Positions 21,038-27,551 of a DNA stretch of 64,000 nt are shown here, one piece after another. The notes beneath the pieces are model-generated. The model made no database searches and was not told the origin of the DNA. It was given only the letters and a program-made list of their open reading frames with translations. How positions within the stretch are numbered: the first letter of the stretch is position 1; each line of letters opens with the position of its first letter. The translations under genes and the position numbers were made by a program. The stretch lies in assembly GCF_053078305.1 (NCBI RefSeq), contig NZ_CP166879.1; one strand, written 5' to 3'.

Positions 21038-22651
21038 TCAATGCTTCACAATATACATAGTCCGACTGTACGCCACATCTTCAGGGTTATTAATGGGATA
21101 ACCTTTCAGCCACGGTTTGATTAATCGTCCATTGGTATATTGATAAATTGGTGCAATCGGTGCTTGCTCCATGAGGATTTTTTCTGCCGCGTTGTAATCG
21201 GCATTACGCGCTTTAACGGTATTTTCCGTCGATGCCTGGACCAGAACTTTGTCGTATGCCGGATTGTAAAAGCGTGAAATATTTCCTGAATGCGTTGACG
21301 TTAATAATGTCAGGAAAGTGGAGGGTTCATTATAATCCCCCACCCATGAGGCGCGGATAACATCAAAATTGCCGGTGTTACGGCTATCGATATAGGTTTT
21401 CCATTCCTGATTTTGCAATTTAACATCTACGCCAAGGTTCTTTTTCCACATCGATGCTACAGCAATCGCAATTTTTTGATGGTTTTCTGAAGTGTTATAC
21501 AAAAGCGTCAGCTTCAGCGGTTTTTGCGGACCATAACCAGCTGCGCTCAACAAAGTTTTTGCCTGCGCATTCAGTTCTTCCTGACTCATTTGTTCAAACG
21601 GCGAAGGTTCCGGCGTAAATCCGGCGGTAACATCTGGTGTAAAATGCCACGCTGGCTTTTCGCCCGTCCCTAATACTTTTTCGGTCATCAGGCGGCGATC
21701 TATCGTCATACTTAATGCCAGACGAACGCGCTGATCTGCCGTCGGCCCTTTTTGCGTGTTAAACGCATAATAATAGGTCCCGAGCTGCGGCGGCGTATAA
21801 ACCTGCCCCGGAATATCCTTCAACAGCTTCTGATACATATTTTTCGGGAAGGATTCGGTGATATCAATATCCCCCGCGAGGTAACGCTTAGTGGCTGCGG
21901 ATTCCTGATTAATTGGCAGGAAGGTCACTTTTTGCAGTACCGTTTTGGCGTTATCCCAATAATGGGTATTCGGTACCACGACCAGTTTTTCATTGACTAC
22001 GCGCTCTTTAAGAACATAAGCGCCATTGCCGATCAGATTTCCGGGTTTCGTCCACTCTTTACCGCTTTCTACGTTGGCTTTTTGCACCGGGAAGAAGGCA
22101 AAGTTAGCGGTTAAATTCACAAACCACGGCAACGGTTTATCAAGCTGAATTTTCAAAGTATGGGCATCAACTGCGGTGACGCCAAGCTGGTCAGGCGTAG
22201 CTTTACCATCAATAATCGCCTGTGCGTTGTTGATTCCCGCCAGCGCGGCAAACCATGCAAATGGCGATAGCGTTTTCGGGTCCACCAGACGCTGCCAGCT
22301 GTAGACAAAATCTTGCGCCGTTACCGGTGTGCCATCCGCCCATTTTGCGTTATCGCGCAGGGTAAAAGTCCAGATACGGTTGTCATTACTTTTCCACTGA
22401 GTCGCAACGCCGGGGACAATCTCCCCTTTCTCGTTCTGATTCACCAGTCCTTCAAACAGATCGCGAATGACCTGAATCTCTGGCAGGCCCACGGCTTTAG
22501 CGGGATCCAGCGACGCAGGCTCATCTTTAATGTGGCGCACCAGCTCCTGCTTCTCTGCCAGTACTGTGCCGCTCGGAACTTCTGCAGCATACGAAAGAGA
22601 AATGCTGCTGACCAACAGCGCACAACACGTGACTGAAACAGAGTGCTTCAT
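21038..22651 (-). CDS. mppA: Periplasmic murein tripeptide-binding protein MppA (SBP family 5), 537 aa
   Basis: Signal peptide MKHSVSVTCCALLVSSISLSYA and an OppA-like fold. Start at MKHSV preceded by GAGGGAAA. Confidence 0.85.
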   Translation of the reverse strand: MKHSVSVTCCALLVSSISLSYAAEVPSGTVLAEKQELVRHIKDEPASLDPAKAVGLPEIQVIRDLFEGLVNQNEKGEIVPGVATQWKSNDNRIWTFTLRDNAKWADGTPVTAQDFVYSWQRLVDPKTLSPFAWFAALAGINNAQAIIDGKATPDQLGVTAVDAHTLKIQLDKPLPWFVNLTANFAFFPVQKANVESGKEWTKPGNLIGNGAYVLKERVVNEKLVVVPNTHYWDNAKTVLQKVTFLPINQESAATKRYLAGDIDITESFPKNMYQKLLKDIPGQVYTPPQLGTYYYAFNTQKGPTADQRVRLALSMTIDRRLMTEKVLGTGEKPAWHFTPDVTAGFTPEPSPFEQMSQEELNAQAKTLLSAAGYGPQKPLKLTLLYNTSENHQKIAIAVASMWKKNLGVDVKLQNQEWKTYIDSRNTGNFDVIRASWVGDYNEPSTFLTLLTSTHSGNISRFYNPAYDKVLVQASTENTVKARNADYNAAEKILMEQAPIAPIYQYTNGRLIKPWLKGYPINNPEDVAYSRTMYIVKH

Positions 22652-22987
22652 AAGTTTCCCTCTAACCGACATTAAAATTGATGCGTAATTATTTGTTTCG
22701 CCTTAAAGAAATGCAAACAACTTCCATCAAAAAAGTGACACAGGAAGCATAAAATGTTTTATGTATCAATATATTAAATCAGATTTAGTGTAAATAATAG
22801 ACGCCAAAATGCGGCAAAGCACATAGAACACCGAACACTACGTTCGGGCTTCGCACGTTCAAACCAGTTTTCGGTATCATAATCAGCATCTGTCGCCATT
22901 GTACGAAGAATAAAAAATAACCAAAACGTTGAAAGGAACTGAGAATACGTTAAGAGAAGAATTAAATTAATGTATCAGCAAGTAGTG

Positions 22988-23887
22988 CTAAACAGCACCT
23001 TTATACTTCAGCCTATCTATAAATAATGAGAATGCCGAGCCAGCATGTCGACGGTGTGGATAGTACAGGTGATAACCGGGTAAATCTGGTGTGAATTTAT
23101 CCAAAACACGTATCAGTTTTTTTTCTTTAATAGCCCGCTCAACCTGATCATAAGGTAGATACGCCAATCCATGCCCATCAATTGCAGCATCAATGATCAG
23201 GTCTATCGTATTCAGTAAAAGCTGACCTTCCATGCGAACACGAACTTCACGTCCACCGCGTATTAATCTCCAGCGATTTGCTGTACCCGATGTGGGAAGA
23301 TACAAATTAACTGCCTGATGATCTATTAATTGTGACACTGACGTTGGAACACTTCGGCGGGAAAAATAATCCGGTGAGCCAACAATAGCCATTGGTATAT
23401 CTGGCCCGATTCGAATGGCGATCATATCTTTATCCATCTCCCCACCCAGACGGACGCCTGCATCAAAACGCTCAGAAACGACATCAGTCAAACCATAATC
23501 AATGATAAGCTGAATATCAATTTCAGGGTGTGATTTCAGGAATGTGCGCATGGCTGGTAACAATATCGTTTTTGCTGCATGTTCTACAGTAGTAATACGT
23601 ATTGTCCCGGATGGGCGGTTCTGCAGATCGCTCAGGGATGCCAGGGCAGAATCTATGTCATGCAGCATAGGGCCAAGAACAGACAAAAGATGCTCGCCCG
23701 CTTCAGTAGGTACAACACTGCGCGTGGTTCGCGTCAGAAGCCGCAATCCCAATCGTTCTTCTATACGGCGCACTATCTGGCTTAATGCTGACTGCGCCAT
23801 GCTCAGGCGGGCTGCTGCGCGAGTGAAGCTACGCTCCTCTGCAACGACGACAAACGCCATCAGATCAGCGATCTCTTCACGCTTCAT
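22988..23887 (-). CDS. pgrR: LysR-family regulator PgrR (YcjZ), 299 aa
   Basis: LysR HTH (FTRAAARLSMAQSALSQIVRRIE). Divergent from ycjY. Confidence 0.85.
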   Translation of the reverse strand: MKREEIADLMAFVVVAEERSFTRAAARLSMAQSALSQIVRRIEERLGLRLLTRTTRSVVPTEAGEHLLSVLGPMLHDIDSALASLSDLQNRPSGTIRITTVEHAAKTILLPAMRTFLKSHPEIDIQLIIDYGLTDVVSERFDAGVRLGGEMDKDMIAIRIGPDIPMAIVGSPDYFSRRSVPTSVSQLIDHQAVNLYLPTSGTANRWRLIRGGREVRVRMEGQLLLNTIDLIIDAAIDGHGLAYLPYDQVERAIKEKKLIRVLDKFTPDLPGYHLYYPHRRHAGSAFSLFIDRLKYKGAV

Positions 23888-23912
23888 TTAGTATCTCCAT
23901 ACAATCTATTAA

Positions 23913-23926
23913 TCATTTAAATGATA
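23913..23926. promoter_or_regulatory. Perfect 14-bp palindrome ATCATTTAAATGAT in the pgrR/ycjY divergent promoter region; candidate operator
   Basis: The sequence is its own reverse complement. It is followed by two direct repeats of GGTCTAATCA at 23928-23937 and 23946-23955. Confidence 0.3.
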
Positions 23927-24024
23927 GGTCTAATCATGATTTTGGGTCTAATCAACTTAATGATCAATATCTATAGTGATATAACCAACCGTTAAAACGA
24001 ACCAACAACTCCATGAGGAACGGA

Positions 24025-24945
24025 ATGATGAATAATAAAGTCAGCTTCACTAACAGCAATAATCCAACCATCTCTTTGTCTGCAGTGATCTATTTTCCTC
24101 CAAAATTTGATGAAACCCGTCAATATCCGGCAATTGTGGTATCTCACCCAGGTGGGGGCGTTAAAGAACAAACGGCCGGAACTTATGCCGAAAAACTGGC
24201 GGAAAAGGGATTTGTCACTATTGCTTATGACGCATCTTATCAAGGTGAAAGTGGCGGCGAGCCGCGTCAGTTAGAAAACCCATACATTCGTACTGAAGAC
24301 ATCAGTGCCGTGATTGATTACCTGACAACGCTTTCTTATGTCGACAATACCCGAATTGGTGCGATGGGAATTTGTGCCGGTGCAGGATATACAGCCAATG
24401 CTGCAATTCAGGATCGCCGCATCAAGGCCATCGGTACCGTTAGTGCGGTCAATATTGGTTCGATGTTCCGTAATGGTTGGGAAAACAATGTGAAATCTAT
24501 TGATGCCCTGCCATACGTTGAAGCGGGTTCAAACGCCAGAACCAGCGATATTAGCAGCGGAGAATACGCCATTATGCCACTGGCACCAATGAAGGAGTCC
24601 GATGCGCCGAACGAAGAACTGCGTCAGGCCTGGGAGTATTACCACACCCCTCGCGCGCAGTATCCAACAGCACCGGGTTACGCTACTTTGCGCAGCCTTA
24701 ACCAGATTATTACCTATGATGCTTACCATATGGCGGAAGTGTACCTGACTCAGCCGACGCAGATTGTGGCGGGCAGCCAGGCAGGGAGCAAATGGATGAG
24801 TGACGACCTGTACGATCGGGCATCAAGCCAGGATAAACGCTATCACATTGTTGAAGGCGCAAACCATATGGATCTTTATGACGGCAAAGCCTATGTGGCT
24901 GAAGCAATTTCAGTATTAGCTCCGTTCTTTGAGGAAACTCTGTAA
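24025..24945 (+). CDS. ycjY: Alpha/beta hydrolase, dienelactone-hydrolase-like with a Cys nucleophile elbow, 306 aa
   Basis: G-x-C-x-G nucleophile motif (GICAGAG). Start at MMNNK with GAGGA upstream. The stop overlaps the next gene start. Confidence 0.8.
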   Translation: MMNNKVSFTNSNNPTISLSAVIYFPPKFDETRQYPAIVVSHPGGGVKEQTAGTYAEKLAEKGFVTIAYDASYQGESGGEPRQLENPYIRTEDISAVIDYLTTLSYVDNTRIGAMGICAGAGYTANAAIQDRRIKAIGTVSAVNIGSMFRNGWENNVKSIDALPYVEAGSNARTSDISSGEYAIMPLAPMKESDAPNEELRQAWEYYHTPRAQYPTAPGYATLRSLNQIITYDAYHMAEVYLTQPTQIVAGSQAGSKWMSDDLYDRASSQDKRYHIVEGANHMDLYDGKAYVAEAISVLAPFFEETL

Positions 24946-25874
24946 TGAAACATATTCAAATCCGCAATAGTGATATGGCCTGGCATATTGCTGCCAATAT
25001 TCAGTTTCCACCAAATTTTGATGAGTCAAAACAGTATCCGGCGATTATCAGCGTCCATCCTTTTGGCAGTTGTAAGGAGCAGACGTCTGGCAATATCTAT
25101 GGCAAGGCATTGGCTGAAAAAGGCTATGTCGTTCTCGCTTATGACGCCAGTTTCCAGGGAGAATCTGGTGGGGAGCCTCGTTGGATAGAAGATCCGACAC
25201 AGCGCGTAGAGGATATTAGCCGTGTTATCGATTATGCAGTAACTCTGCCATATGTTGATGCTGAACGCATTGGCGTGCTGGGTGTGTGTGGGGGGGGTGG
25301 CTATGCCATTAATGCCGCGCTGACAGAAAAACGAATTAAAGCTGTAGTGAGTATTACGGGTGTTAATATCGGGCGTCTTTTTCGGGAAGGTTTCAGCAAT
25401 TACGATCCGATTGGCGCATTGAATGCAATGGCGTCGCAACGAACCAAAGAGGCTCGTGGTGGAGAATTACAGATCAACGAATTACTTCCCGCCAGCCTGG
25501 ATGCAGCAAAAGCCCATGGACTGACCGAACGCGATGTTTATGAAGCAACTGACTACTATAAAACACCACGCGGGCAACAACCGGGAGGTGCGACAAAAAT
25601 GTTGTTCTCACATGCACAGAAAACGCTGGCCTGGGATGCCTTCGCATTTACTGAAGTGTTACTGACTCAGCCGGTGATGGTAGTAGTTGGTGAAAAAGTC
25701 GGTGCCTTCGGTGCTTATCGTGATGGACTGGAAGTCTATGGCCGGGCGATGGTTTCGCAGGATCGTCAGTTAGTTTCATTACCCGATTTCTCACATTATG
25801 AACTGTATGACAAACCGGAAGCAGTTCAGGAGGCGCTGGAAAAAGTTATTCCTTTTTTCAACACCCATCTGTGA
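24945..25874 (+). CDS. Second, tandem alpha/beta hydrolase paralogous to ycjY, 309 aa, intact
   Basis: Alignable with YcjY over its whole length (shared blocks AYDASxQGESGGEPR, EDISxVIDY, RIKA). Nucleophile motif GVCGGGG. Translationally coupled via TAATG. May correspond to the locus annotated as a remnant (ymjD) in K-12, from memory. Confidence 0.75.
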   Translation: MKHIQIRNSDMAWHIAANIQFPPNFDESKQYPAIISVHPFGSCKEQTSGNIYGKALAEKGYVVLAYDASFQGESGGEPRWIEDPTQRVEDISRVIDYAVTLPYVDAERIGVLGVCGGGGYAINAALTEKRIKAVVSITGVNIGRLFREGFSNYDPIGALNAMASQRTKEARGGELQINELLPASLDAAKAHGLTERDVYEATDYYKTPRGQQPGGATKMLFSHAQKTLAWDAFAFTEVLLTQPVMVVVGEKVGAFGAYRDGLEVYGRAMVSQDRQLVSLPDFSHYELYDKPEAVQEALEKVIPFFNTHL

Positions 25875-25894
25875 TAAGTTTCATGAGAAATATT

Positions 25895-26532
25895 ATGAAA
25901 AATGTACTCATTCTTGGTGCTGGCGGTCAGATAGCCCGCCATGTGATTAATCAACTGGCAGATAAACAAACCATTAAACAAACTTTATTTGCTCGTCAGC
26001 CAGCAAAAATACACAAACCCTATCCAACTAATAGCCAGATTATTATGGGGGATGTACTGAATCATGCAGCACTGAAGCAGGCCATGCAGGGACAGGATAT
26101 TGTGTATGCCAACCTTACGGGGGAAGATTTAGATATTCAGGCAAATTCAGTGATCGCTGCGATGAAAGCCTGTGATGTTAAACGTCTGATCTTTGTTCTT
26201 TCCCTCGGCATTTATGATGAAGTTCCAGGAAAATTTGGCGAATGGAATAATGCAGTTATTGGTGAGCCCCTAAACCATTCCGCAGGGCTGCGGATGCAAT
26301 TGAGGCTTCTGGACTGGAATATACAATTCTTCGCCCTGCCTGGCTGACGGATGAAGATATTATTGATTATGAGCTTACCTCACGCAATGAACCATTCAAA
26401 GGTACGATCGTATCACGTAAGAGTGTCGCAGCATTAATTACAGATATCATCGATAAACCTGAGAAACACATTGGTGAGAATATAGGCATCAATCAACCCG
26501 GGACTGATGGCGACAAGCCATTCTTCATGTAA
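25895..26532 (+). pseudogene. ymjC: NAD(P)-binding NmrA/SDR-like protein interrupted by a frameshift (ymjC-like)
   Basis: Rossmann motif ILGAGGQIARH. The frame runs to a stop at 26347, but a different frame continues as ...KPFRRAADAIEASGLEYTILRPAWLTDEDIIDYELT... to 26532. The shift maps to about 26265-26276 (gagcccctaaacc). Start codon uncertain (25883 or 25895). Confidence 0.55.
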
Positions 26533-26822
26533 ATCAATTATATAGCCACCATCGTACTGTACTATGTGCAGTACGATTTATTAAACTTATTAAGGTGAAC
26601 TGATCAATCAGATGCGATTAACATGTGTAGAACCAGTAAGAATAAAATACGCCATGTATATAACATTACGACAATTCTAATATCTGCACATCAATAAAAA
26701 TACAAACAACTTCCGGCAAAAAAGTGATACAAGATCGATGACATAGCGTTGAAGAAAAGGATTTGATAATCCGCAAAATTTGCACAACACTGCCTGTAAT
26801 ACTTCCTGAACCAGAGACGATC

Positions 26823-27525
26823 ATGACCGTAACCCGCCCACGCGCCGAACGCGGCGCATTTCCGCCCGGAACAGAACATTACGGACGTTCATTATTGGGC
26901 GCGCCGTTAATCTGGTTTCCGGCCCCTGCAGCCAGTCGCGAAAGTGGTTTGATTCTGGCTGGCACTCACGGTGATGAAAACTCTTCGGTCGTCACGCTCT
27001 CCTGTGCTCTGCGGACTTTGACACCTTCTTTGCGCCGCCATCATGTGGTGCTGTGTGTGAATCCTGACGGCTGCCAGCTGGGGTTACGGGCCAATGCTAA
27101 TGGTGTGGATTTAAACAGAAACTTTCCGGCGGCAAACTGGAAGGAAGGTGAAACGGTTTATCGCTGGAACAGCGCCGCTGAAGAACGTGATGTCGTATTA
27201 CTGACTGGTGACAAACCTGGCTCCGAACCTGAAACCCAGGCGCTGTGCCAGCTTATACACCGCATTCAACCTGCCTGGGTGGTCTCATTCCACGATCCAC
27301 TGGCCTGTATTGAAGATCCCAGACACAGCGAATTAGGCGAATGGCTGGCTCAGGCGTTTGAATTGCCTCTGGTAACCAGCGTCGGTTATGAAACGCCTGG
27401 CTCTTTCGGCAGTTGGTGTGCAGATCTGAACTTGCATTGCATCACCGCAGAGTTTCCGCCCATCTCCTCCGACGAAGCCAGCGAAAAATATCTCTTTGCG
27501 ATGGCAAACTTGCTGCGCTGGCATC

Positions 27526-27551
<26 letters not shown>
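26823..27551 (+). CDS. mpaA: Murein peptide amidase A (gamma-D-Glu-DAP amidase, M14-like), 242 aa
   Basis: Zinc-binding HxxE motif (GTHGDENSS). Start at MTVTRPRAERG. Confidence 0.85.

Follow-up and report, generated by a model that had tools for sequence, protein, structure and literature searches.

Why does the same short sequence lie in front of both mppA and mpaA, two genes that are transcribed away from each other? In the 64-kb window analysed here (the whole stretch of DNA, 64,000 nt), a repeat search finds a 37-nt direct repeat whose copies are 86% identical (32/37) and 3,989 nt apart: copy A, aaatgcaaacaacttccatcaaaaaagtgacacagga, at 22709–22745 on the mppA side, and copy B, aaatacaaacaacttccggcaaaaaagtgatacaaga, at 26698–26734 on the mpaA side, both on the plus strand. 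The original prediction had placed copy B at 26696–26733; the sequence is present, with its coordinates off by 1–2 nt, and the predicted distance of about 90–125 bp to the mpaA ATG (26823) agrees with the measured one, the copy starting 125 nt and ending 89 nt before it. Copy A lies 57–94 nt upstream of the mppA start. As mppA is on the minus strand and mpaA on the plus strand, the same-strand copies are oppositely oriented relative to their own genes, and they therefore cannot do the same job at both.

The likeness of the two copies is, as had been claimed, far better than chance. A brute-force scan of copy B against the whole window on both strands returned copy A at 32/37 and a runner-up at 22/37, and the 25-nt core CAAACAACTTCCNNCAAAAAAGTGA, which occurs in exactly two places in the 64 kb at up to three mismatches, had no match in 100 dinucleotide shuffles, ruling out a chance resemblance. 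Nor does the motif belong to a dispersed repeat family of the REP, BIME or ERIC kind: across 5,418 complete Escherichia coli genomes it occupies a median of two and a maximum of four places per genome, and is thus a two-copy feature. No Rfam family was found at copy A, copy B or the mpaA 5′ untranslated region (UTR).

Gene annotation, transferred from a 99.7% identical genome, places mppA at 21038–22651 (minus strand), a queH fragment at about 22816–22890 (minus), pgrR at 22988–23887 (minus), ycjY at 24025–24945 (plus), a second alpha/beta hydrolase gene at 24945–25874 (plus), an SDR/NmrA-like gene at 25895–26533 (plus) and mpaA, encoding a murein tripeptide amidase of 242 aa, at 26823–27551 (plus), with ycjG, tpx and tyrR 3′ of mpaA. 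Between the copies lie 3,952 bp (22746–26697), made up of a 242-bp flank with the queH fragment, four genes and a 164-bp flank; window positions 22560–22990 are 100% identical to an E. coli O157:H7 strain. The gene upstream of copy B, which had been taken for ymjC, is here a full-length but frameshifted SDR gene and not the stub of K-12. Relative to strain PS10-3, a 1-nt deletion in an A-run at about 26272 shifts the frame, so that the open reading frame ends at 26347 (150 aa against 212) and the gene is a pseudogene in the window strain. Inside pgrR, at 23433–23537 on the minus strand, a weak match to the Rfam family RAGATH-10 stays below the gathering threshold (28.5 bits, threshold 41.2, E = 0.023) and is probably due to chance.

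Duplication of one ancestral spacer segment

We compared 80–82 MpaA loci, one genome per species, with neighbouring genes mapped by tblastn. In 72 species from roughly 15 genera of Enterobacteriaceae, mppA (minus) and mpaA (plus) are immediate neighbours; among these species are E. albertii, E. whittamii and three further Escherichia lineages, as well as Citrobacter, Enterobacter, Klebsiella, Kluyvera, Leclercia, Lelliottia, Pluralibacter, Kosakonia and others. The undisturbed spacer is mostly 176–203 bp long (range 138–316 bp; exactly 182 bp in Escherichia) and, where the motif is still recognisable, holds a single copy of it about 93–127 nt before the mpaA ATG. Among the loci compared, only E. 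coli and Escherichia sp. E1V33 have pgrR–ycjY between mppA and mpaA, and within E. coli itself 174 of the 5,418 complete genomes retain an empty site with the two genes directly divergent (for example, loci L083 and L084). Because the single-copy state is found in some 15 genera, it is the ancestral one.

Against an undisturbed spacer, the copy A side can be aligned from the start of mppA to the end of the motif, beyond which similarity is lost; the alignment of the copy B side begins at the motif's first base (AAATGC) and reaches the mpaA start, with unrelated sequence to its left. The half-spacers, 57 nt (22652–22708) and 88 nt (26735–26822), add up with the 37-nt motif to 182 nt. These alignments and this sum identify the repeat as the duplicated centre of one ancestral spacer. 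The earlier framing, in which one motif serves two genes, consequently has to be replaced: the copies are a single ancestral segment that was duplicated when a cassette was inserted. Weak similarity continues for about 10 nt beyond copy A (ATAA.AT), and the duplication may be up to about 47 bp long.

The inserted cassette is foreign. A Raoultella chromosome and Klebsiella plasmids carry homologues with 79% nucleotide identity, whose surroundings are unrelated; the homology runs from window position 22988 (the pgrR stop) to 26603, about 70 nt past the SDR stop, and in the shared four-gene unit two alpha/beta hydrolase genes and an NmrA-like SDR gene diverge from a LysR regulator gene. Remoter relatives occur on Rhizobium and Agrobacterium plasmids, and close homologues of PgrR (87–89% identity) in Klebsiella, Raoultella, Kluyvera, Citrobacter, Enterobacter and Salmonella, some of them plasmid-borne. 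The GC content of the cassette is below that of mpaA and ycjG. In the pgrR–mppA spacer, outside the cassette homology, RefSeq annotates a 25-codon internal fragment of the epoxyqueuosine reductase QueH, which suggests that the direct donor of the cassette had queH beside pgrR; this arrangement is absent from the cassette contexts looked at (Raoultella and Klebsiella plasmids).

Target-site duplications made by transposons and insertion sequences are short, 2–14 bp. The repeat here, at 37 bp, is too long for one, the insert ends show no terminal inverted repeats (score 9; shuffles average 11) and the 3.95-kb block has neither a transposase nor an integrase gene in it or beside it, and we reject this origin; this flanking duplication matches none of the standard mechanisms of transposition. 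Around a foreign block, direct repeats that are tens of base pairs long are the classic signature of an integrative island, and the copies might be attL/attR-like cores from a circular element that carried the ~37–47-bp sequence, any promoter role being incidental. Such an origin would account for target-derived direct repeats that bracket a foreign block, for the empty site seen in relatives and 3% of E. coli genomes, and for a length in excess of transposon duplications; the same spacer has, in addition, taken other insertions, with cdtABC in Salmonella arizonae/diarizonae and a tyrosine-integrase prophage at the mppA 5′ end of one E. coli. Yet the block has no integrase or excisionase gene in or beside it, the related cassettes are homologous only over 22988–26603, which excludes the insert ends adjoining the motif copies, 72 species have the motif as a native part of the spacer, the Salmonella insertion came without such a duplication and the target here is a promoter rather than a tRNA gene. 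We regard an attachment-site origin as quite unlikely.

The mpaA start site and its probable promoter

The original prediction took the position of copy B to imply an internal promoter for mpaA. Three kinds of evidence, namely sequence, a published transcription start site (TSS) and conservation, all place the core of such a promoter in copy B.

First, a start has been mapped next to it. Kim et al. (2012, PLoS Genet, PMC3415461) charted TSSs genome-wide in K-12 MG1655 grown to mid-exponential phase in M9 glucose, using terminator-exonuclease enrichment of 5′-triphosphate RNA, 5′RACE and deep sequencing. Their Table S1 lists an mpaA start at position 1388705 on the minus strand with 20 reads, and gives the 50 nt upstream plus the TSS (51 nt) as AACTAATAAAATGCAAACAACTTCCGGCAAAAAAGTGATACAAGATCGATG. 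By sequence identity, this start falls on the G at window position 26740 (plus strand), 6 nt after copy B, which accordingly spans −42 to −6, and supports the claim of an internal promoter there. The 5′UTR is 83 nt long from 26740 to the current ATG; the 23-nt UTR given in that study leads to a former TTG start, which corresponds to the open reading frame starting with TTG at 26763 of the window. The published table lists no other TSS between ycjY and mpaA, and over the stretch from copy B to the ATG the window differs from K-12 at a single base, in the leftmost part of the motif. The start is documented in one dataset and one growth condition, in K-12 rather than the window strain, and the supplement text of PMC4782308, PMC6131387 and PMC2760140, as far as it was available to us, adds no TSS evidence. 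For mppA, the same published table has no experimental TSS near copy A.

Second, the sequence preceding this start resembles an extended −10 promoter. The candidate element TGaTACAAG (26725–26733, plus strand) has TG at −15/−14, one base before a TAnnnn hexamer at −12 to −7, and in K-12 the TSS lies 6 nt after TACAAG (one dataset, 20 reads). As in extended −10 (TGn) sigma-70 promoters, a −35 is missing (none is recognisable for this distal start), initiation occurs 6 nt after the hexamer and the TG is conserved across genera. The fit is imperfect: the proposed hexamer has the A at −11 but ends in G rather than the usually critical T at −7 (G or C across species), a generic promoter scan reports nothing upstream of mpaA, and a second, proximal candidate exists, as described below. 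From these features we infer which bases form the −10 and that the promoter is sigma-70-dependent.

Third, the element is conserved. In an alignment of the 72 undisturbed spacers, T−15, G−14 and A−13 are each present in 71 of 72 species (99%), and T−12, A−11 and T−10 in 67–74%; the motif consensus outside Escherichia is TGATATAAG. TGaTACAAG is invariant in all nine copy B sequences examined. Furthermore, in species that have no cassette, the stretch corresponding to copy B lies in the only DNA upstream of mpaA, which must therefore carry the native mpaA promoter. We consider it likely, on this convergence, that mpaA has its own promoter with copy B as the core and that the two-copy motif is the scar of an insertion, not an element recruited twice.

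The 5′UTR holds a further pair of conserved blocks, GAAAAGGATTTGATAA and TTTTGCACAACACTGC (26754–26793, plus strand; +15 to +54 of the 26740 start), which are mostly 90–100% conserved in the 72 species and more conserved than the 37-nt motif itself. They contain a candidate proximal promoter, TTGATA (26763–26768) and AACACT (26786–26791) separated by 17 nt, with A at position 2 and T at position 6 of the latter hexamer. The published distal start could on this basis be minor or artefactual, with TTGATA-17-AACACT (26763–26791) driving mpaA and copy B serving as UP-like A-tract context or as an inert scar. The 85–100% conservation of both hexamers in the 72 species, their retention in Salmonella arizonae, where the blocks are kept and the motif is gone, and the mere 20 reads at the distal TSS speak for this reading. 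It does not, however, explain why K-12 shows no proximal TSS in the table of PMC3415461, which lists starts down to 2 reads, why the distal TGA (−15 to −13) is 99% conserved or why the −10 of copy B is invariant while that of copy A decays, and we judge it rather unlikely as an account of mpaA expression. The blocks may represent a second promoter or an operator alongside the promoter core at copy B. An RNA element is not indicated: the mpaA 5′UTR folds no better than its shuffles (z = −0.38) and matches no Rfam family. Within the blocks, AAA..TTGAT and TTGCA resemble the conserved ends of the motif, in swapped order.

Copy A, mppA and a possible shared regulator

On the other side of the cassette, a consensus scan predicts a sigma-70 promoter for mppA at 22688–22717 on the minus strand, with a −35 of TTTGCA (22717–22712) inside copy A, an 18-nt spacer and a −10 of AATAAT (22693–22688); TTTGCA-18-AATAAT is the only promoter-like site that the scan finds in the region. 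Both hexamers fall within blocks that are about 100% conserved in the 72 species, GAAATGCAAA and CGTAATTATTTGTTTC, and we infer from them a promoter to which copy A probably supplies the −35. For K-12, PMC3415461 Table S1 lists two starts inside pgrR: one on the mppA strand, assigned to mppA with a 489-nt UTR (6 reads), and one antisense start assigned to ycjY with a 667-nt UTR (10 reads).

The two copies have diverged in different places. Relative to the spacer of the nearest outgroup (L003), copy B has no changes in K-12 and a single one in the window, in the TTTGCA that is now irrelevant there, whereas copy A has four (GG to AT, and T to C and A to G in the mpaA-type hexamer) and none in TTTGCA. 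The first position of the hexamer (−12) is C in copy A in nine of nine occupied genomes, and T in every copy B and in every single-copy Escherichia spacer as well. Judged by these substitutions, the mpaA-type −10 of copy A is decayed, and each copy looks like it keeps only the half that its neighbour needs.

These observations suggest a history for the locus. Ancestrally, mppA and mpaA diverged from one spacer of ~182 bp, in which, given that both mppA hexamers lie in invariant blocks, the two upstream promoter regions would have stood back-to-back and overlapped. The ancestral 37-bp segment would have held the mppA −35, TTTGCA, on the bottom strand at its left end and the TGaTACAAG of mpaA on the top strand at its right end. 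Plain insertion at any point of this segment would have cut one promoter or the other; the foreign 3.95-kb cassette, by duplicating exactly the 37-bp overlap as it entered the spacer, would have spared both, since each gene then kept a complete promoter. RNA polymerase would now start mpaA at 26740 without depending on the ycjY/pgrR promoter region that lies 2.7 kb upstream, and copy A, facing away from mppA, would retain only a −35 and an A-tract for mppA.

The proposed ancestral arrangement is like other compact divergent promoter regions: in an undisturbed spacer, the starts (predicted for mppA, mapped for mpaA) are about 70 bp apart, and the mppA −35 occupies −38 to −33 of the mpaA promoter on the opposite strand. 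It differs from them in the window, where the two halves stand 4 kb apart and the overlap is present twice.

The same segment could instead bind an as yet unnamed transcription factor that co-regulates mppA and mpaA, with each gene having kept its own copy after the duplication. The motif blocks GAAATGCAAA, CTT, AAA and TGA are 88–100% conserved in the 72 species, more than a promoter lacking a −35 would obviously need; the segment, at −42 to −6 of mpaA and about −30 to −65 of the predicted mppA start, is in typical activator or repressor territory; and copy A still retains 33 of its 37 ancestral bases. Such a site would also be compatible with a promoter at copy B. The conserved blocks are, however, equally accounted for by the mppA −35 together with the mpaA extended −10, the GG-to-AT and T-to-C changes of copy A strike the middle and right of the motif, the copies are oppositely oriented relative to their own genes, inspection by eye reveals neither dyad symmetry nor a likeness to the consensus of a familiar regulator, and the papers searchable here hold no binding data. 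A shared regulator is a possibility that we hold tentatively, below the promoter reading. A broader version is more doubtful still: the 37-bp segment would be the operator, throughout Enterobacteriaceae, of an undiscovered regulator of murein-tripeptide uptake and breakdown, and the duplication would have let the insertion survive by uncoupling competing promoters. If true, it would mean that two promoters formerly competed for one polymerase-sized site and that an insertion mechanism exists that makes target duplications of 37–47 bp without a resident recombinase.

One regulator is encoded between the copies, and the motif might be an operator through which the LysR-type PgrR controls mppA and mpaA. 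The copies bracket pgrR, and PgrR is reported to control the ycjY–ymjDC–mpaA unit and peptidoglycan-recycling genes (table in PMC5934670). But the genomic SELEX peak of PgrR for this region is in the ycjY/ycjZ spacer and not at copy A or B (same table), the motif shows no similarity to the pgrR–ycjY spacer, and its conservation extends to 72 species and 174 E. coli genomes in which the pgrR cassette is missing between mppA and mpaA (some of those species may carry the cassette elsewhere). Being conserved where the locus is without pgrR, the motif is older than the arrival of that gene, and a PgrR operator is highly improbable.

Other readings of the motif were tried. As a sigma-54 promoter, together with TTTGCACAACACTGC, it has a GG–GC spacing 1 nt short in both sequences and a GG that is not conserved, and this reading was rejected by eye. 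As a sigma-E promoter, with AACTT as −35, it gives a poor −10 match (ACAAG) and only the CTT is conserved, which leaves this reading without support; a link of RpoE to pgrR/ycjY is mentioned in PMC5493296. No convincing full site for CRP, FNR or a PurR-like regulator was seen among half-sites examined by eye.

Forms of the locus and their consequences

Four forms of the locus occur in E. coli: the empty site, the full cassette, the cassette without the second hydrolase gene, and the K-12 type with an SDR stub. The full query was covered to at least 80% in 2,914 E. coli genomes. K-12 is without the second hydrolase gene that is present in the window (region 26034–26697 compared with L002 4181–4434; also L091 and L005), and without the SDR stretch that runs from about codon 48 up to the last base ahead of copy B. 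The latter deletion makes the annotated ymjC of K-12 an open reading frame in which the SDR N terminus is fused to copy B and reads through it, so that the motif makes up its last 13 codons. On the right, the deletion stops within a few nucleotides of the left edge of the duplication, with a microhomology of AATA. The same SDR junction is found in Escherichia sp. E1V33; it is either old or has been exchanged by recombination.

In K-12, mpaA has been described as part of a PgrR-controlled ycjY–ymjD–ymjC–mpaA unit (Shimada et al. 2013, as cited in PMC5934670 and PMC5493296). The window resembles this arrangement in that mpaA is downstream of ycjY on the same strand and may receive read-through from it. 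It departs from that view in that the insertion alone joined mpaA to ycjY and in that mpaA has its own start 83 nt before the ATG. If copy B is the promoter core, mpaA would not be merely the last gene of a PgrR-controlled ycjY operon, having retained its ancestral promoter, and its link to pgrR/ycjY would be an accident of an acquired cassette landing inside a divergent promoter. For annotation, the ymjC of K-12 is a deletion remnant that reads into the probable mpaA promoter. The locus would offer a natural example of an insertion into a shared promoter that was tolerated because the shared core was duplicated, and the empty-site E. coli would be ready controls for the effect of promoter uncoupling on murein-tripeptide genes. 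The mpaA TSS itself is already public; we found no paper on the history of the insertion and duplication or on the splitting of the promoters.

The mppA–mpaA spacer has been disturbed elsewhere. Salmonella enterica subsp. arizonae and diarizonae (L023 6848–10000 and L025) carry an independent insertion of ~3.1–3.4 kb in it, encoding three proteins with the Pfam domains CDtoxinA, Exo_endo_phos and CDtoxinA, that is, a cdtABC-like (cytolethal distending toxin) operon; neither the 37-nt motif nor the promoter blocks close to mppA survive there, and only the ~75 nt nearest mpaA are kept. In the empty-site E. coli MFDS1019527 (L096 3224–4669), a tyrosine-integrase prophage abuts a 66-bp remnant of the mppA 5′ end beside the undisturbed spacer, and the mppA start seems to be the phage attachment site.
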